Source: a virus
Lineage: Duplodnaviria > Heunggongvirae > Uroviricota > Caudoviricetes
Length of the DNA stretch: 9,732 nucleotides
Direction: 5' to 3' (one strand)
IMG/VR virus record: IMGVR_UViG_2671180415_000013
Shown here: positions 1,537 through 9,490 of the stretch, one piece after another
Numbering within the stretch: the stretch's first letter is position 1
How the letters are laid out: every line of letters starts with the position of its first letter
Program-made: the position numbers and the translations under genes
Notes under the pieces: model-generated
Told to the model about the DNA's origin: nothing
What the model saw: the letters and a program-made list of their open reading frames with translations, nothing else
The model's database searches: none

Positions 1537-2037
1537 TTAGGCGCGACGGCCTTTTTGTGCAGCTAACCACCGCGCAACCGTACGATCCATTGATTCTTTT
1601 TTATCTTTCATCTCCTGAAGCATGTGTTCTTGATCTTCTTTCGGAAAAGCTCTGAACGTATGGATTAAATCTCGTTCCATCGGCTCTACGGCAAACGGTA
1701 GTTCATCCTCTGTTTGTTCTGTGTCTGCTGGTAATGCGACTATGTTATCTTGCTGTGGTTCTCGACAATACATCCTTGCAATTTGCAGCAAATCTACCAT
1801 GTCTGGCCTGATTGACTCAGGGGGAACTTTCAGTAAGCCAGCAAACTTTAGAACAGCCTCAAGGTTTAGTGGGGTTTGACCATTTAGGTAGTGACTTACC
1901 GCCCCTTGTGTTGAAAACCCCATAATTTCCGCCGCACGTTCCTGAGTCAATCCCAACTGAGATTTCTTTGCCATCCAGATTTCTTTCAGTCTTCTGGCGG
2001 CGTTGAGGTCGGTGTCTGACAATGATTTTCTTTTCAT
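1537..2037 (-). CDS. paaR: Prophage repressor with a lambda cI-like N-terminal HTH domain and no LexA/S24 peptidase domain (PaaR2-like), about 166 aa
   Basis: The N-terminus MKRKSLSDTDLNAARRLKEIWMAKKSQLGLTQERAAEIMGFSTQGAVSHYLNGQ... aligns by eye with the lambda cI N-terminus (...[47 protein letters not shown]...). The C-terminal ~85 aa are acidic and too short for an S24 domain. The tracked ORF extends to a GTG at 2067; I prefer the ATG at 2035-2037 from the cI alignment, but the start is uncertain. It is first in the operon with the antitoxin and toxin. Confidence 0.8.
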   Translation of the reverse strand: MKRKSLSDTDLNAARRLKEIWMAKKSQLGLTQERAAEIMGFSTQGAVSHYLNGQTPLNLEAVLKFAGLLKVPPESIRPDMVDLLQIARMYCREPQQDNIVALPADTEQTEDELPFAVEPMERDLIHTFRAFPKEDQEHMLQEMKDKKESMDRTVARWLAAQKGRRA

Positions 2038-2148
2038 ACATCCAATTCTAATAAGATTGCTAATCACTTTGAAATAGTATCACTATTTACTTTTAAAAAT
2101 AACAGTGCTATTAATTATGCATTGGTAACACATCACATAGGGCGGATT
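2038..2148. promoter_or_regulatory. Divergent immunity control region (PRM/PR-like) with operator palindromes
   Basis: Perfect 17-bp palindrome AAATAGTatcACTATTT at 2072-2088, and a related degenerate site at 2097-2115. A candidate rightward promoter is TTTACT (2086-2091), 17-nt spacer, TATTAA (2109-2114), overlapped by both sites. It lies between the leftward repressor gene and the rightward cro-like gene. Confidence 0.6.
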
Positions 2149-2412
2149 ATGAATCTTGGAGAATATTTGCATCATTTTCATATAACCCAGAGTTCATTTG
2201 CTGAGATTGTTGGCGCATCCCAAGGGATGGTCAGCCACGTTATAACGGGGCGTGCAAAACTTACAGGAGAAAAAATATTACGTTGGTGTGAAGCAACGGG
2301 ATGGGTGGTGACCCCACATGAGATTGACAGTAAAACCTACCCCAACCCAACTGACGGCTTGCCTGCTGAGTTTCAGGCTAACACACAACCATCGGCGGGG
2401 GTTGATTCATGA
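2149..2412 (+). CDS. Cro-like HTH regulator (YdaS-like), about 87 aa
   Basis: MNLGEYLHHFHITQSSFAEIVGASQGMVSHVITGRAKLTGEKI... is a small HTH protein transcribed divergently from the repressor. The tracked ORF starts at a TTG at 2122; I prefer the ATG at 2149, preceded by agggcgg. Its TGA stop overlaps the ATG of the next gene (ATGA at 2409-2412). Confidence 0.7.
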   Translation: MNLGEYLHHFHITQSSFAEIVGASQGMVSHVITGRAKLTGEKILRWCEATGWVVTPHEIDSKTYPNPTDGLPAEFQANTQPSAGVDS

Positions 2413-2834
2413 AAATCAAGCATGAACACATCCGCATGGCGATGAAAGCCTGGGCGCATCCGGACGGTGAAAAAGTTCCGGCAGCTGAAATAACCAGGGT
2501 TTATTTCGAACTGGGAATGACGTTTCCGGTTCTGCATAACGACAGCAAGCACAACACGCTTTATCTCAACACCCAAAAGATTTTCCGTTGGCTGGATAAA
2601 GACACCCCTGACGCTGTTGAAAAAATTCAGGCGTTGTTACCTGCGATCGAAAGGGCAATGCCACCTCCGCTGGTGGCTCGAATGCGCAGCCACAGTTCAG
2701 CTTATTTTCGGGAACTGGTGGAGACGCATGAACGACTGGTGAGAGACGCTGATGATTTTGTCGCAGTGGCAATCGCCGGTTTCAATCAGATGAACCGTGG
2801 TGGCCCGGCAGGAAATGCTGTGGCAGTACATTGA
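2409..2834 (+). CDS. YdaT-like protein (CII functional analogue in Rac-type prophages), 141 aa
   Basis: The N-terminus MKIKHEHI... and the ~140-aa size match my recollection of Rac YdaT. It sits directly after the cro-like gene with an ATGA overlap. Family assignment is from memory. Confidence 0.65.
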   Translation: MKIKHEHIRMAMKAWAHPDGEKVPAAEITRVYFELGMTFPVLHNDSKHNTLYLNTQKIFRWLDKDTPDAVEKIQALLPAIERAMPPPLVARMRSHSSAYFRELVETHERLVRDADDFVAVAIAGFNQMNRGGPAGNAVAVH

Positions 2835-2905: not shown

Positions 2906-3970
2906 ATGGCTAACGCCTGGCTCAGATTATGGCATGACATGCCAAATGACCCTAAGTGGCGAACAATTGCCAGGGTGTCAGGGCAGCCAATTGCAACAGT
3001 GATGGCAGTGTATATCCACCTCCTGGTGAGCGCGTCACGAAATGTCACGCGAGGTCACATTGATGTCACGACAGAAGATTTGGCAAGTGCGCTCGACGTG
3101 ACAGAAGAGGTAATTGATTCAATTTTGCAGACGATGCAGGGGCGGGTACTTGATGGTGATTTAATCACTGGATGGGAAAAACGCCAGGTGCTTAAAGAGG
3201 ACAACGGCAATATTTCGCAAACCGCAAAATCTCCTGCAGAGCGCAAGAGGGCGCAGCGAGAGAGGGAAAGAAAGCGGGAACAAAATGGCGATTGTCACGG
3301 CGCGTCACGAAATGTCACGCACATGTCACGACGAGTCACGACAGATACAGATAAAGATACAGATAAAGAAGATCAAAACACTATGGTCCATGGCGTAAAA
3401 AACGCCACGAACCAGGCAGGGGATGTTCAGACCGTCAATCCTGGTCAGCCAGCAGGCTCGACACCGGAAGCCGATTCAGCGTATGCGCTGAAAGCCGATT
3501 CGGGCGCTGTGCAGCAGGTGATGACCGCAAGGCCGGAGCAATCACTCCAACTGCAGCAGCCTGAAGCCGATTCCGCCATTCAGCGGGAAGCCGATCGGGT
3601 AGCCCCGGAAAACACCGGGCAGCCTGTGGGACGAGTGGATTATCCGGATGTGTTCGAACAGGTCTGGCGGGAATACCCGTTGCGTGCCGGGGCAAACCCG
3701 AAGAAATCCGCATTCAGTGCCTGGAAGGCCAGATTGCGCGAGGGGGTGCCACCAGAGACCATGCTGGATGGTGTGAGGCGTTACGCGAGATACCTGGCGG
3801 CGACCGGGAAAGCGGGAACGGAATTTGTTCAGCGAGCGACGACGTTTTTTGGGCCGGACCGGAATTTTGAAAACCCCTGGTTGCTCCCGGTAAGCGGCAC
3901 GAACAACCAGCGTTGTGTGAATCATATTTCTGAACCGGATACCGAAATTCCGCCGGGATTCAGGGGGTGA
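2906..3970 (+). CDS. Phage replication initiator (lambda O-like / replisome organiser) with internal origin iterons, about 354 aa
   Basis: The N-terminus MANAWLRLWHDMPNDPKWRTIARVSGQPIATVMAVYIHLL is typical of enterobacterial prophage replication proteins. The gene contains the phased GTCACG repeats and lies immediately upstream of the DnaC-like gene. SD AGAGG precedes the ATG at 2906; the tracked ORF begins at a GTG at 2900. Confidence 0.7.
   Translation: MANAWLRLWHDMPNDPKWRTIARVSGQPIATVMAVYIHLLVSASRNVTRGHIDVTTEDLASALDVTEEVIDSILQTMQGRVLDGDLITGWEKRQVLKEDNGNISQTAKSPAERKRAQRERERKREQNGDCHGASRNVTHMSRRVTTDTDKDTDKEDQNTMVHGVKNATNQAGDVQTVNPGQPAGSTPEADSAYALKADSGAVQQVMTARPEQSLQLQQPEADSAIQREADRVAPENTGQPVGRVDYPDVFEQVWREYPLRAGANPKKSAFSAWKARLREGVPPETMLDGVRRYARYLAATGKAGTEFVQRATTFFGPDRNFENPWLLPVSGTNNQRCVNHISEPDTEIPPGFRG
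3031..3070. repeat. Iteron cluster 1 (four GTCACG/GTCACA hexamers at about 10-11-bp phasing), putative origin element
   Basis: GTCACG at 3033, 3043 and 3065, and GTCACA at 3054. The 20-mer cgcgtcacgaaatgtcacgc at 3031-3050 is repeated exactly at 3301-3320. Confidence 0.6.
3291..3367. repeat. Iteron cluster 2 (five GTCACG hexamers at 9-11-bp phasing) followed by an AT-rich tandem 12-mer; putative ori core
   Basis: GTCACG at 3294, 3303, 3313, 3324 and 3334. The 12-mer gatacagataaa is tandemly duplicated at 3344-3355 and 3356-3367, giving an AT-rich stretch next to the iterons, as in lambda ori within the O gene. Confidence 0.6.
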
Positions 3971-3976
3971 TGTGGC

Positions 3977-4725
3977 ATGAAAAACATTGCGGCAGCCGGG
4001 GTTCTTGAACGTATTCACAGNNNNNNNNNNNNNNNNNNNNNNNNNNNNNNNNNNNNNNNNNNNNNNNNNNNNNNNNNNNNNNNNNNNNNNNNNNNNNNNN
4101 NNNNNNNNNNNNNNNNNNNNNNNNNNNNNNNNNNNNNNNNNNNNNNNNNNNNNNNNNNNNNNNNNNNNNNNNNNNNNNNNNNNNNNNNNNNNNNNNNNNN
4201 NNNNNNNNNNNNNNNNNNNNNNNNNNNNNNNNNNNNNNNNNNNNNNNNNNNNNNNNNNNNNNNNNNNNNNNNNNNNNNNNNNNNNNNNNTGTGTTCAGCG
4301 GTAAAACCGGCACCGGGAAAAATCACCTTGCAGCGGCGATGGGTAACCGGCTGATGGCGAAGGGGCGCAGCGTGATTATCGTCACCGAGTCTGATGTCAT
4401 GAGCGTGTTGCATGACAGCTACGACAACGGCAAATCCGGTGAAAAATTTTTACAGGAGCTTTGCGGGGTTGATTTGCTGGTCCTGGATGAAATAGGCATT
4501 CAGCGGGAGACGAAAAACGAGCAGGTGGTATTGCACCAGATAATTGATCGCCGGACAGCATCACTGTGCAGTGTCGGGATGTTAACAAACCTGAATCATG
4601 CCGCAATGAGCACGCTTCTTGGTGAGAGGATTATGGACCGCATGACCATGAACGGTTGTCGGTGGGTGACGTTTAACTGGGATAGCTGGCGTTCAAATGT
4701 CAGCTTTCCGGGAGTTGTGAAGTAA
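3977..4725 (+). CDS. dnaC: DnaC-like helicase loader (AAA+ ATPase), interrupted by an N-run
   Basis: The N-terminus starts MKN like E. coli DnaC. After the gap, FSGKTGTGKNHLAAAMGNRLMAKGRSV...LLVLDEIGIQRETKNEQVVLHQIIDRR...GMLTNLNHAAMSTLLGERIMDRM...WVTFNWDSWRS closely matches DnaC Walker A/B and C-terminal motifs as I recall them. SD GGGGGTGAT precedes the ATG at 3977, and the O-like stop is at 3968-3970. The two sides of the gap are in different frames, so the N-run length is not the true length. Confidence 0.85.
4021..4289. other. Run of 269 N (assembly gap or masked segment) inside the DnaC-like gene
   Basis: Literal n characters in the sequence. Confidence 0.99.
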
Positions 4726-4746
4726 TTTTTGTTGGAGGATGTTTTA

Positions 4747-5472
4747 ATGGAAACTGTATTTGACGCACTGAAAGCACTGAAAAGAGCCTCTTCACATGTG
4801 GTGGCGTCCCGCCTTGGAATCAGCCGTGAAGATGCGGTCAACGAACTGTGGAAACTGAAGCGCCGTGGTGAAGCGGATAACAAGGGTTCGATGTGGTGGC
4901 TGATTCAGGCTGGTGAAAGTGAACCAGTGTCACCGGTACCGAAAGTGACAGCGCAAATGCTGACTGAGGCGATTGAACAACATGGCCCACAAACGGCGGA
5001 TGAGCTGGCACTGATGTTCGGGATTACCTCCCGCCGGGCGAATTCATCGCTGGCCATGGCAATCAGCAAAGGGCGTCTGATTCGCGTGAATCAGGGCGGT
5101 AAATTTCGGTACTGCATACCGGGCGCTGATTTACCGGCAGAGCCGAAAGCCGCATCCATAGCGGAAACGGATGGTAAAGTCTTTCCTCAGCCAGCAGGTG
5201 TTGCGTTACCGGTACAGGAAGCTGCAACACAGGAAGAAATTAAAACAGAAACTGTGGCGGACATTGTGCAGTCGTTGCCATCGTTCACCGAAACGCAAGC
5301 GGATGACCTGGTTTTACCATCGCTGCATATGGCAAACCGCGAACTGCGTCGGGCGAAAAGTCATGTCCAGAAGTGGGAGCGTGTCTGCGCCGCGTTGCGG
5401 GAGCTGAACAAGCACCGGGATATTGTTCGACAGATTGTCGATTCCTCCGGTCGTATTGTGTCGGAAAAGTGA
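4747..5472 (+). CDS. hypothetical protein with two tandem helix-turn-helix-like modules and a C-terminal charged/helical tail (about 241 aa)
   Basis: ORF track 4729..5472. I prefer the ATG at 4747, with GGAGGAT 8 nt upstream. Two similar segments (...[23 protein letters not shown]... and ...[29 protein letters not shown]...) suggest duplicated DNA-binding modules. Family not recognised. Confidence 0.55.
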
Positions 5473-5487: not shown

Positions 5488-5892
5488 ATGGCAAAAGTAT
5501 TTACACAGGAAGAGCGGGAAAAAATTAAGGGGCAGGTTGTTGAACTCGTACGCCAGAGTGGGCGCGAGACGTTACGACAACTGGAAGCTAAAANNNNNNN
5601 NNNNNNNNNNNNNNNNNNNNNNNNNNNNNNNNNNNNNNNNNNNNNNNNNNNNNNNNNNNNNNNNNNNNNNNNNNNNNNNNNNNNNNNNNNNNNNNNNNNN
5701 NNNNNNNNNNNNNNNNNNNNNNNNNNNNNNNNNNNNNNNNNNNNNNNNNNNNNNNNNNNNNNNNNNNNNNNNNNNNNNNNNNNNNNNNNNNNNNNNNNNN
5801 NNNNNNNNNNNNNNNNNNNNNNNNNNNNNNNNNNNNNNNNNNNNNNNNNNNNNNNNNNNNNNNNNNNNNNNNNNNNAGTGCCGGAAGAGTGA
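5488..5892 (+). CDS. hypothetical protein whose interior is lost in an N-run (N-terminus MAKVFTQEEREKIKGQVVELVRQSGRETLRQLEAK...)
   Basis: ATG at 5488 follows a G-rich stretch. The frame appears continuous across the N-run to a TGA at 5890-5892 only if the N-run length is exact, which is unknown. Product unknown. Confidence 0.35.
   Translation: MAKVFTQEEREKIKGQVVELVRQSGRETLRQLEAKXXXXXXXXXXXXXXXXXXXXXXXXXXXXXXXXXXXXXXXXXXXXXXXXXXXXXXXXXXXXXXXXXXXXXXXXXXXXXXXXXXXXXXXXXXXXXXXVPEE
5594..5876. other. Run of 283 N (assembly gap or masked segment)
   Basis: Literal n characters in the sequence. Confidence 0.99.
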
Positions 5893-6578: not shown

Positions 6579-8411
6579 ATGGCCCGCATGTTTGATACAT
6601 TAGGATTTTACATTATGAATGTGCAACATTTTGATTTTTTTACAGATAATGAGTTTTCTAATCTGGAAAGATATCAAACTTGTAAAGCCATGGCCAAAGG
6701 TTATGCGGGCAATTACAAAACCGGGCAGTCAAGGTTGATGCATGCCCGCTCATACTGCTTCAGCATCGTAGCTGCATATTGGGATACCCTTGCAAAAAAG
6801 CAAAAAAGCAGCATTAAAATGAGGGCAGTACCGCACACTGTTTACATAGAAGACATTCCATGTGATGCACGCGAGCTCGCTGAACGAACAGGTGAGCTTA
6901 TTGCTCAATTTCCGGCGGAGGACGCTGGATATCTGATTGGGTCAATTTATACGGTAATGCTGCCATCCGCTTACCGTTCGGAATTGGGGGCTTACTATAC
7001 CCCCCCACCTTTGGTAGCGCGTCTCTTGGACCTGGCTGAAAAGTCTGGTGTTGATTTTTCTCATGCATCGGTTATTGATCCTGCGTGTGGTGGCGGTGCA
7101 TTTTTGGCACCAGTAGCCATTCGAATGTTAAAAAAAGACAAGGGGTCTTCCCCTGAATGGATGTTGAGGAGAATCAGTCGTCGTTTAAAGGGGATAGAGA
7201 TCGATCCATTTGCGGCTTGGATGAGTTTGGTATTGCTCGAATCTGTACTAATGCCACTATGTGTAAAGGTAAAACGTAGATTGCCTGAAGATACAATTAT
7301 TGTTGCTGATGCGCTTCAGCAAGATAAATTTTCTGGTTATGATCTTGTGGTAGGGAATCCGCCTTACGGACGTGTCACTCTCGATATTAAAACGAGAGAA
7401 AAATATTCTCGTTCGTTATTTGGTCATGCAAATCTATATGGATTGTTCACCGACTTAGCTGTTCGCATGGTTAAAGAGAAAACAGGAGTTATTGCATTTC
7501 TTACGCCAACTTCTTTTCTTGGTGGGCAGTATTTCACCGCGCTGCGAACCCTTTTGACCGAAAAAACTACTCCGTATGCCCTTGATTTCGTCACTGACAG
7601 GGATGGGGTCTTTGACGATGTTCTCCAGGAAACAATGTTGACAGCATTCAAGGCGGGAGAACATAAAGTTCGGGCCCAGGTATCCTCACTTGTCCCTAAG
7701 GGGTTGAACAAAGCAAAAATTGAGAAAATAGGTAATGTTGATATAGAAAAAGGTGGAGCAACGTGGCTTTTGCCACGCGTTAAAGATGATGCCTGTTTTC
7801 TTAATGTATTAAAACAGATGTCTACGCGTTTAGCTGATCTGGGATACTCAGTCTCTACAGGTCAGTTAGTCTGGAATCGATTTAAGTCGCAGTTGCGTAC
7901 GACGAAAGGAAAAAATAGCTACCCATTAGTCTGGGCGGAATCAATAACTTCAGCTGGTTTTCGTTTTAGTGCAGACAGAAAAAATCATGTTCCCTATATC
8001 GATATAACCCCACAACAGGGTTTCCTTGTGACAAAATCTGAATGTGTGCTTGTTCAGCGGACAACATCGAAGGAACAGGACAGAAGGATTTTAGCGGCAA
8101 TTTTACCTCAGGGATTTATAGATGAAACTGGTGGCGTAGTAGTTGAAAACCATATTAATATTGTATATTCAAACGGATTGTTCTCTGCGGTTCGCCCTGA
8201 TGTTATTGATATGCTACTTAATTCGCATGTTGTCGATCGGGCGTTCAGGTGTATAAGCGGAAGTGTTGCTGTTTCGGCCTATGAATTGCATTCAATCCCG
8301 TTGCCTTCTCTGGAGCAGGTGATGGAGATTCAATCGTTAATTGATGCTGGCGTCCACAGACGGATTATTGAGAGAACTATCGCTGGTTTCTATGGAGTGA
8401 TGATTGCATGA
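6579..8411 (+). CDS. N6-adenine DNA methyltransferase, gamma-class (Eco57I/TaqI-like N6_Mtase fold) with a C-terminal target-recognition region
   Basis: Motif order X then I then IV: GAYYTPPPLVARLL (motif X), VIDPACGGGAFLAP (AdoMet-binding motif I), DLVVGNPPYGRV (catalytic NPPY motif IV), followed by about 300 aa of putative TRD. The start is uncertain among ATGs at 6579, 6588 and 6615. The TGA stop overlaps the ATG of the next gene (ATGA at 8408-8411). Confidence 0.9.
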   Translation: MARMFDTLGFYIMNVQHFDFFTDNEFSNLERYQTCKAMAKGYAGNYKTGQSRLMHARSYCFSIVAAYWDTLAKKQKSSIKMRAVPHTVYIEDIPCDARELAERTGELIAQFPAEDAGYLIGSIYTVMLPSAYRSELGAYYTPPPLVARLLDLAEKSGVDFSHASVIDPACGGGAFLAPVAIRMLKKDKGSSPEWMLRRISRRLKGIEIDPFAAWMSLVLLESVLMPLCVKVKRRLPEDTIIVADALQQDKFSGYDLVVGNPPYGRVTLDIKTREKYSRSLFGHANLYGLFTDLAVRMVKEKTGVIAFLTPTSFLGGQYFTALRTLLTEKTTPYALDFVTDRDGVFDDVLQETMLTAFKAGEHKVRAQVSSLVPKGLNKAKIEKIGNVDIEKGGATWLLPRVKDDACFLNVLKQMSTRLADLGYSVSTGQLVWNRFKSQLRTTKGKNSYPLVWAESITSAGFRFSADRKNHVPYIDITPQQGFLVTKSECVLVQRTTSKEQDRRILAAILPQGFIDETGGVVVENHINIVYSNGLFSAVRPDVIDMLLNSHVVDRAFRCISGSVAVSAYELHSIPLPSLEQVMEIQSLIDAGVHRRIIERTIAGFYGVMIA

Positions 8412-9490
8412 ATCTGCCTGTTGTTCCCCCATTGAATGTTATCCGGGAAAGATTACAATTAATTTTCCCTGAAGGGACTGAGAATCGTGGATATTTAATT
8501 CGGGAAATAGCTGCAAAAACAATTTTTGTCATGTTTTATGCTGGTGCGGTTGAGGGGCTGGGGCGATGGATAAGGCCCAGCCAGGTTGTAAGTATGGGAG
8601 ATTCGCAGGCTGCTCTTACTGATGATGCGTCCAGAGAAAGCTGGGTAAAGATGACTTTCTCTAAACAAAAGATAAGGCCTGCTGATGCATGGTATGCGGA
8701 AAATACGCGTGAGCCAATACGTGATGAAACTATAAAAAATGGCCTAATACCTTGCAATGCAATTGTTGAGCGTAAAGGTATACCCACCACATCCTCTCGT
8801 CCTCGTTACAGTTTGAATCGCTCTTTTGCAGCACTCTTTGATGCCGGGCTTGAAGGAGATTCGCTGCTGAGTGCAATAAGTTCCTGGCAAGAAAATCATT
8901 TGAACAAAGCCGCTCTTGCTAGGTTGCGTTTATTGAAATCAGGGGCAGTGATTGCTGCTGATGCCGTAGTCGTCACTTTCCCAAATGGAGAGAAGAGAAC
9001 TTTAGCTCCGGGCCCGTCAAGTACAATAGCTAAGGCCGTCATCGAAGTTTTTGCTCCTAATTTTCTTAAGAATCCAACTGTGCTCTGGTTGTCTGAATCC
9101 GGGAATAAAGTTGTTGCTCAGGATGATGTATTGGCAAAAGCATTGGGGCTGAATATTGATGCCTCAAAAGCACTTCCAGATATTATTTTGATTGATTTGG
9201 GAGAGGACCGAACGGGTTCGGACATGCTTGTAGTTTTCACTGAAGTAGTTGCGACAGATGGGCCTATAAACAGGGAACGAAAAGTTACTCTCACTCATTT
9301 GGCTATTGACGCTGGGTTCAGCGAGAAAAATCTTGCATTCCTTACGGCATTTATGGACAGAAGTGCTCTGCCTTTTAAAAAGGCAATACCAGAATTGGCG
9401 TGGGGATCTTATGCATGGTTTGCTTCTGAACCGGAGCACTTAATTGATCTTCGGGATGGTTATCCGGTAAAGATCAGCCAGAGAAAATGA
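8408..9490 (+). CDS. Uncharacterised 360-aa protein translationally coupled to the methyltransferase; candidate cognate restriction endonuclease (possibly BsuBI/PstI-like), unverified
   Basis: Confident as a gene: long ORF, same strand, 4-nt overlap with the MTase stop, GGAG 10 nt upstream, same AT-richer composition as the MTase. The function is inferred only from context; I cannot point to a canonical PD-(D/E)xK motif by eye. The segment DIILIDLGEDRTGSDMLVVFTEVVATDG is a possible degenerate nuclease core. Confidence 0.6.
   Translation: MNLPVVPPLNVIRERLQLIFPEGTENRGYLIREIAAKTIFVMFYAGAVEGLGRWIRPSQVVSMGDSQAALTDDASRESWVKMTFSKQKIRPADAWYAENTREPIRDETIKNGLIPCNAIVERKGIPTTSSRPRYSLNRSFAALFDAGLEGDSLLSAISSWQENHLNKAALARLRLLKSGAVIAADAVVVTFPNGEKRTLAPGPSSTIAKAVIEVFAPNFLKNPTVLWLSESGNKVVAQDDVLAKALGLNIDASKALPDIILIDLGEDRTGSDMLVVFTEVVATDGPINRERKVTLTHLAIDAGFSEKNLAFLTAFMDRSALPFKKAIPELAWGSYAWFASEPEHLIDLRDGYPVKISQRK

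Follow-up and report, generated by a model that had tools for sequence, protein, structure and literature searches.

In this study we focus on a 9,732-nucleotide stretch of viral DNA (IMG/VR record IMGVR_UViG_2671180415_000013, Caudoviricetes; hereafter the window), which is the early region of a lambdoid Escherichia coli prophage, and on the replication initiator gene that it contains. This 354-residue open reading frame (ORF) matches phrog_3729, 'replication initiation protein', from end to end (E 3e-250), and carries within its coding sequence two arrays of short, helically phased direct repeats, or iterons. Our reading is that the vegetative replication origin of the prophage is written inside the gene of its own initiator, and judging from sequence comparison we put the probability of this at about 75%. 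In its best form, the core origin would be made of the downstream array (cluster 2) and the AT-rich stretch beside it, at the linker between two protein domains, while the upstream array (cluster 1) would be an auxiliary array located in the segment that encodes the predicted DNA-binding domain. Embedded origins, as well as phased iterons next to an AT-rich region, are already known; what appears to be new is a second array inside the coding segment of a DNA-binding domain.

Nine copies of GTCACR are found on the + strand of the window and every one of them lies within the initiator ORF, with GTCACG starting at 3034, 3044, 3065, 3294, 3304, 3314, 3325 and 3335, and GTCACA at 3054 (Table 1). 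An initial annotation, made from the letters of this DNA alone, had described the nine hexamers in two clusters, which proved exact, and had given their spacing as 9-11 bp; the helical phasing stands, the actual spacing being 10 or 11 bp and never 9. The 20-mer that it reported as identical at 3031-3050 and 3301-3320 is one base longer, namely the 21-mer GCGCGTCACGAAATGTCACGC at 3030-3050 and 3300-3320, and the AT-rich tandem 12-mer that it saw adjoining cluster 2 (at 3344-3367) was found again as two copies of AGATACAGATAA at 3343-3366. Overlooked at that stage was an inverted copy of the core, CGTGAC, which with its flanks matches the cluster-2 unit at 3324-3335 in inverted orientation over 12 nt.

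The two 12-mers are part of the AT-rich stretch that adjoins cluster 2 and is translated into an acidic linker of D, T, K and E residues. We propose this stretch as the DNA unwinding element, and cluster 2 as the core initiator-binding array of the origin. Promoter and terminator scans gave results at chance level, the sole notable one being an imperfect palindrome (TGGTCCATGGCGTAAAAAACGCCACGAACCA) that surfaced on the - strand in the terminator-like scan and is partially conserved in L167, a locus described below. Its attribution to the origin is tentative. In lambda, too, a palindrome is located right of the AT-rich region.

Table 1. Coordinates of the features discussed, numbered from the first letter of the window
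Feature	Position	Strand	Remarks
Replication initiator gene	2906..3970	+	phrog_3729; N-domain, basic helix, acidic linker, C-terminal module
Iteron cluster 1	3034..3070	+	four direct GTCACR units, spacing 10, 10, 11; codons 43-56 (ASRNVTRGHIDVT)
Inverted iteron copy CGTGAC	3097..3102	-	27 nt past cluster 1; codons 64-66 (DVT)
Iteron cluster 2	3294..3340	+	five direct GTCACG units, spacing 10, 10, 11, 10
AT-rich purine-biased stretch (proposed unwinding element)	3341..3380	+	GC 0.275, the lowest of the gene; 75% purine on the top (coding) strand
C-terminal module of initiator, loader-interaction (putative)	3375..3970	+	separate BLAST coverage; swapped independently of N-domain and iterons
Imperfect palindrome	3384..3414	.	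just past the AT-rich stretch, on its right; DNA fold -8.7 kcal/mol, z -3.2
Helix-turn-helix (HTH) repressor	1537-2067	-	
Cro-like HTH gene	2122-2412	+	
YdaT/cII-like gene	2409-2834	+	
DnaC/IstB-like helicase loader gene	3977..4725	+	IstB_IS21 1.2e-16; phrog_50 'DnaC-like helicase loader' 1.2e-53
DUF1627 gene	4729-5472	+	
Restriction-modification pair	6579-9490	+	

Taken by itself, the count of GTCACR hexamers is not unusual: both strands of the window together have 11, with 7.1 expected. As to their arrangement, GTCACG forms five phased neighbour pairs, when no 6-mer formed more than two in 500 dinucleotide shuffles, so the claim of phasing came through the shuffled-sequence control that the initial annotation had put forward. 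Furthermore, over 5000 synonymous permutations of the ORF, GTCACR occurred 1.95 times on average and never more than 7 times, against the nine observed.

The repeats had also been described as being in frame and as giving the protein its repeated ASRNVT segments. This is correct for the 21-mer pair, which is in frame because its members are separated by 270 nt, and incorrect for successive hexamers. With a period of 10-11 nt the latter occupy all three frames and encode S-R, V-T, G-H and V-T in turn (xxG TCA CGx, GTC ACG, xGT CAC Axx), and a repeated peptide therefore cannot be their cause. The repeated ASRNVT peptide is a by-product of the DNA repeats rather than a protein repeat.

Selection on the DNA itself was examined at conserved, degenerate amino-acid positions in 20 relatives of the GTCACG group sharing pairwise less than 90% nucleotide identity. 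Relative codon entropy is 0.14 in codons 43-56, compared to 0.82 outside (Mann-Whitney p 1.9e-6). The codons of V47 (GTC), T48 (ACG), G50 (GGT), H51 (CAC) and V54 (GTC) are invariant, and that of R49, whose third base falls in the spacer, varies freely among the relatives; V65, in the inverted copy, is encoded by GTG in 17 of 17 relatives. Among 82 copies of the gene from E. coli and Shigella, 75 keep the complete pattern of four, five and one inverted unit and 81 retain the inverted copy, and variation otherwise lies in the AT-rich stretch, which counts 4 or 5 GATAMA units. Both clusters and the inverted copy are conserved as DNA, independently of the code.

The layout recurs among relatives, which were sampled as homologues of the N-terminal domain from phage records and from one genome per species (80 loci); these loci share ancestry and are not phylogenetically independent, and weak arrays were classified heuristically. 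A phased array at gene offset ~120-190 and a second one at ~310-490 recur among them, the downstream array being present in most of the 80 loci and cluster 1 wanting in a minority discussed below. In the distant relatives inspected, cluster 2 is followed by a purine-rich AT stretch made of GATAAA, GAAGAA or GAGAAG repeats. The core, in turn, is specific to each lineage (GTCACG, GTAACG, CGAACG(C), GCAACG or GTGACG). Where cluster 2 is clear (56 loci), the best phased 6-mer was determined separately at offsets 100-250; it equals the cluster-2 6-mer 44 times, while control regions of equal length gave 1, 1 and 3 matches; at the level of core class, the two clusters are concordant in 53 of 54 loci. 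About nine switches of the cluster-1 core can be placed on a neighbour-joining tree, rough and noisy, of the 79 residues that are not encoded by repeats.

Within the Burkholderiaceae, the core is GCAACG in Ralstonia phage Hennie, Burkholderia sp. and Cupriavidus, and GTGACG in two Paraburkholderia. The swap affects identical positions in both clusters, and the peptide tracks the core, reading S-A-T-Q-G-N-A-D-A-T-R-G-N with GCAACG and S-V-T-Q-G-D-A-D-V-T-R-G-D with GTGACG. The sole discordant locus (L065, a metagenome-assembled genome assigned to Pseudomonadota) contains three CGAACG followed by GTGACG at offsets 121-195 and pure GTGACG at 355-382; this hybrid could represent either a recombinant or a stage in a switch of specificity. 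Comparison of the recognition-helix residues across core classes revealed anecdotal differences only.

A length variant of cluster 1 was also observed, in which a 21-nt (7-codon) insertion, ASRNVTTCHGVSLRGH, at offsets ~148-180 (L006, L168) provides two extra iteron units. It is found in E. albertii and in some E. coli, and preserves both the reading frame and two helical turns.

A second type of initiator N-terminal part displays the same design. In L167 (NZ_CP018241.1, 1224815-1225906), an alternative N-terminal part (MRDYAKVSPRFW...) is fused to the window-type C-terminal module. It has no Pfam match, and no resemblance to the N-terminal domain of the window protein was noticed, the two not having been compared directly. 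The two-cluster layout is present here with AAGGGGCTT, as (A)AGGGGCTT units at offsets 171, 184 and 195 and again at 440, 451 and 462; the clusters span offsets 171-206 and 440-472, have an 11-nt period, and are followed by GAACAG repeats. In 20 non-redundant relatives of this type, codons 62-68 (GAA GGG GCT nnn AAG GGG CTT) are frozen at synonymous sites, relative entropy being 0-0.14 at E62, G63, K66, G67 and L68, when codons outside 58-75 average 0.77. In many of these relatives (L169-L248), the downstream cluster is the reverse complement of the upstream cluster. The existence of this second family implies that the two-cluster layout is not peculiar to one lineage.

At the protein level, the AlphaFold2 model of residues 1-155 contains, from N to C terminus, helices 3-14, 16-25 and 29-46, a loop or strand at 47-55, helices 56-63 and 67-77, a beta wing at 78-88, and a basic helix at 110-126. 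On this model the putative N-terminal origin-binding domain (residues ~1-100) is predicted to be a winged helix. The codons of cluster 1 specify the last part of helix 29-46 as well as the loop or strand that precedes the helix-turn-helix, the inverted copy encodes the turn of the helix-turn-helix, and cluster 2 with the AT-rich stretch encodes the linker past the basic helix (CHGASRNVTHMSRRVTTDTDKDTDKED).

Coverage of the gene by BLAST matches splits between query positions 1-464 and 476-1071, corresponding to 3363/3375 in the window, inside the AT-rich stretch. Moreover, natural exchanges of the two halves were found: L168 joins a window-type N-terminal part, with both clusters, to a DnaT-like C-terminal domain followed by a lambda-P-like loader, and L167 joins its different N-terminal part to the window-type C-terminal part followed by the same DnaC-like loader. 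On account of these swaps and of the BLAST split, the N-terminal domain, the iterons and the AT-rich stretch are one module and the C-terminal domain with the loader is another, as in lambda O and P, the linkage between C-terminal domain and loader being documented by a handful of examples. In the linker of the C-terminal half, a 36-nt direct repeat (3464-3499 and 3560-3595, 96 nt apart, 75% identity) encodes PEADSAYALKAD and PEADSAIQREAD.

The last 24 residues of the initiator (3896-3967, ...NHISEPDTEIPPGFRG) resemble the C terminus of DnaT, with an NCBIfam E-value of 8e-4 (18-19 bits for a cut-off of 201) and PDB matches to 6aep, 2ru8 and 9zbt at E 0.02-0.07. This tail explains the annotations as 'primosomal protein I' given in phage Evi and pAEv1818; assignment of the protein to DnaT was rejected, the homology being confined to these 24 residues. 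The tail was also seen on Rac YdaU and on other types of C-terminal domain, and might act as a common docking peptide towards the helicase or the loader.

Assignment to a described initiator family was not obtained. The protein has no Pfam match above threshold; Phage_rep_org_N (PF09681) scores 15.7 bits for a cut-off of 23.3, with residues 5-123 aligned to positions 1-119 of 121, TIGR01714 scores 18.4 for a cut-off of 49.8, and the replisome-organizer families of PHROG give weak matches (2.4e-5 and 4e-4). Membership in the phage replisome organizer family (PF09681/TIGR01714) was rejected, as both scores fall below the curated cut-offs, and a profile comparison (hhalign) with G38P of phage SPP1 found no relationship (E 0.86). 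The lambda O family was likewise discarded: Phage_rep_O is absent among the Pfam matches of the N-terminal half up to E 10, a range in which the HMMER filters drop most matches above ~0.1. Correspondence with Rac oriJ/YdaU was also set aside, since YdaU of K-12 is a DUF1376 protein (2.7e-26) and the window protein is not, and YdaU is without a clearly phased array.

In the mechanism that we propose, the N-terminal winged-helix domain would bind each core, probably with one subunit per unit and along one face of the helix, like plasmid iteron initiators. The five units of cluster 2 would seed an oligomer beside the putative unwinding element, and cluster 1 with the inverted copy, 229 bp upstream, could nucleate a second oligomer bridging to the first, thereby looping or wrapping the intervening DNA and either aiding the melting of the AT-rich stretch or tuning its frequency. 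The C-terminal module would recruit the DnaC-like loader with the host DnaB, and transcription from the early rightward promoter would traverse the site, as at ori-lambda. We infer that cluster 1 communicates with the core origin; this could stimulate it through a loop or wrap, inhibit it by roadblock, titration or handcuffing, or do both.

As expected of an iteron-type theta origin, the locus presents at least three phased direct repeats, an adjacent AT-rich element, and repeats that co-vary with the initiator encoded in cis. The origin within its own initiator gene that the initial annotation suggested is supported by the DNA-level selection, by the switching core that the clusters share, and by the AT stretch at the position of the lambda origin. 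Several results weigh against this interpretation. No perfect DnaA box was found, and one-mismatch sites occur at chance level. Among the 67 relatives with an identifiable cluster 2, 11 have fewer than two copies of its core at the cluster-1 position, and no substitute cluster is present within +/-1.5 kb in loci that lack cluster 1, which is therefore not universally required. The helical phase between clusters is not convincingly conserved: Rayleigh p-values range from 4e-4 to 0.02 according to the assumed pitch, and common descent of the loci, like units gained or lost as a whole, confounds the test. Confidence in the AlphaFold2 model is moderate (mean predicted local distance difference test score, pLDDT, 72; 81-92 across most of residues 11-90), and a fold search of the N-terminal domain against the PDB returned nothing significant, winged-helix regulators dominating the weak list. 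Finally, we found no paper on this family or its origin, nor any linking GTCACG with phage iterons, and the papers about the 'Eru' replication region in Stx phages do not discuss origins.

The function of cluster 1 is where the closest competing explanation lies. Cluster 2 and the AT-rich stretch could be the whole origin, cluster 1 being a control element outside the initiation complex that either blocks transcription of the initiator and loader genes (autoregulation) or limits firing by initiator titration or handcuffing, as the auxiliary arrays of plasmids do; we consider this rather unlikely, yet deserving of attention. It would suit an array situated 128 nt past the start of the gene, which some lineages can do without and which is accompanied by an inverted copy, and in iteron plasmids inverted half-sites serve autorepression. 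Melting of the R6K origin is negatively controlled by initiator-mediated looping, according to work cited in PMC5043065. The sequence, however, does not separate such a control element from a stimulatory role, and the two roles are not exclusive; in addition, the promoter scan showed no promoter-like site overlapping cluster 1. We also know of no need for copy control in lambda-type lytic replication, which counts against a control element.

It is improbable that the repeats are unrelated to initiator binding and serve instead as sites for some other protein (the cII/YdaT-like regulator, the product of the DUF1627 gene or a host factor, for instance). Cores of 6 bp could suit many winged-helix or HTH proteins, but in the relatives examined the N-terminal domain is their only constant partner: the genes up- and downstream differ in Aeromonas, Pseudomonas, Ralstonia and spring-water phages, and the C-terminal domain and the loader change too. 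Furthermore, the different N-terminal domain of L167 has different repeats at the same places, and the changes of core between lineages fit a phage-specific protein, not a host factor. Still less credence, indeed hardly any, is due to a coding artefact, in which a conserved or repeated peptide combined with codon bias would generate the hexamers. Members of the GTCACG group do show strong conservation of the peptide ASRNVTRGH.DVT, of which the ASRNVT part is present twice; however, the hexamers run through three frames, freezing is limited to the codons beneath them with R49 left free, synonymous permutation falls short of the observed count, the core switches jointly in both clusters with the peptide following, and the inverted copy is conserved. 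Examined through frames, codon entropy, permutation and core switches, the artefact is not supported. The origin reading can be extended to a widespread, undescribed design of Proteobacterial temperate phages, in which a second array in the DNA-binding-domain code is functionally required via looping or self-roadblock control; we advance this extension tentatively.

In characterised replicons, an AT-rich region is opened by the stress that arises when initiators occupy several phased sites next to it; the lambda and SPP1 origins lie inside the initiator gene, and the iterons of plasmids follow the helical phase and are bound by monomers (PMC5043065, PMC5737612, PMC6316719). In position and proposed function, the closest known system is ori-lambda, which is also mid-gene (offset ~350-430), at the linker between N- and C-terminal domains, with an AT-rich stretch next to it (PMC5043065, PMC6022878). 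The lambda iterons are annotated at offsets 348-432 of the O gene (NC_001416), as a single cluster followed by an A-rich stretch. In lambda too, the N-terminal domain and the iterons are the specificity module and the C-terminal domain goes with the loader. By contrast, the single lambda cluster contains four 18-bp palindromic sites ~20-24 bp apart, bound by O dimers, whereas the direct repeats of the window have a 6-bp core and recur every 10-11 bp, and 229 bp upstream there are a second cluster and an inverted copy, within the code of the DNA-binding domain; no lambda iteron half-sites were found elsewhere in O. The parallel with lambda O drawn in the initial annotation thus holds for position and fails for homology, the repeats being 6-bp-core direct repeats and not 18-bp palindromes. 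Its description of the origin as split in two is right in that there are two clusters, and would be better worded as an auxiliary upstream cluster added to a core origin, the latter formed by cluster 2 together with the AT-rich stretch.

Several iteron plasmids (P1, F, RK2, R6K, pSC101 class) possess a distant second array that controls initiation by pairing or looping. Their iterons are 17-22 bp long and located outside the rep coding sequence, whereas the units of the window are ~10 bp long and both arrays are translated. SPP1 oriL (gene 38, G38P) is also close to the element of the window, in that iterons (AB boxes) and an AT-rich unwinding element are found mid-gene, with the loader and helicase genes following, and a 356-bp oriL fragment is sufficient in vitro (PMC5737612, PMC6316719). 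It differs by its second G38P-binding region, oriR, which is ~13 kb away in the circularised genome (PMC6316719), instead of 230 bp away in the same gene. In Staphylococcus aureus pathogenicity islands and phage-inducible chromosomal islands, a winged helix also reads penta- or hexanucleotide iterons arranged in two sets (PMC9371898). Those iterons are found downstream of the rep ORF, with oppositely oriented sets on either side of the AT-rich region, and the initiator is itself a helicase; in the window, the two sets share one orientation, lie within the gene and are located on a single side of the AT-rich stretch.

If the extended reading, with its required second array, is true, a change of origin specificity requires the concerted rewriting of ~10 sites plus the protein, the amino acids of a loop in the binding domain are dictated by the site that this domain binds, and the design arose in at least two families of initiator N-terminal domains, between which no similarity was detected. 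Knowledge of the origin and of its specificity code would serve the annotation and typing of the replication modules of these prophages. The system would be an unusually clean natural case of a coding sequence shaped by a DNA-binding requirement, and its many natural specificity switches could be useful for learning how 6-bp cores are recognised by a winged-helix domain. Synonymous recoding can remove cluster 1 and leave the protein unchanged, which makes the role of this cluster (enhancer, loop anchor, roadblock or copy control) directly testable.

The initiator gene has some match in 2504 of 5426 complete E. coli genomes, and in 1647 of them at least 80% of the gene is present; carriers include prophages of O157 and O145 strains. 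Relatives of the initiator are found in Aeromonas, Pseudomonas, Ralstonia, the Burkholderia group and many other Proteobacteria. Plasmid records with the gene were considered as evidence for autonomous replication and rejected, as they consist of large plasmids bearing prophages, two chromosome-sized records, and circularly assembled Pseudomonas phage genomes. The last are two 50.9-kb circular 'plasmids' of Pseudomonas aeruginosa (CP124671.1, our L250, and CP137943.1), which are lambdoid-type phage genomes with this initiator module; they have no typed plasmid replicon, and the initiator gene is absent from the listed genes of the record. Their deposition as circles is no evidence of origin function.

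The immunity region of the window is Rac-like: the genes at 1537-2834 (repressor, YdaS-like and YdaT-like) resemble those of Rac in a comparison with L165 (K-12 Rac, 1419765-1421106). The initiator family differs from Rac YdaU (DUF1376), which places a mosaic joint between the immunity and replication modules. No known RNA family was found within the window. Two runs of N, at 4021-4289 in the middle of the DnaC-like gene and at 5594-5876 after the DUF1627 gene, make the masked parts unreadable. Further downstream, the restriction-modification pair comprises an N6-adenine/Eco57I-like methyltransferase (610 residues) whose gene overlaps that of a BsuBI/PstI-family endonuclease (360 residues).

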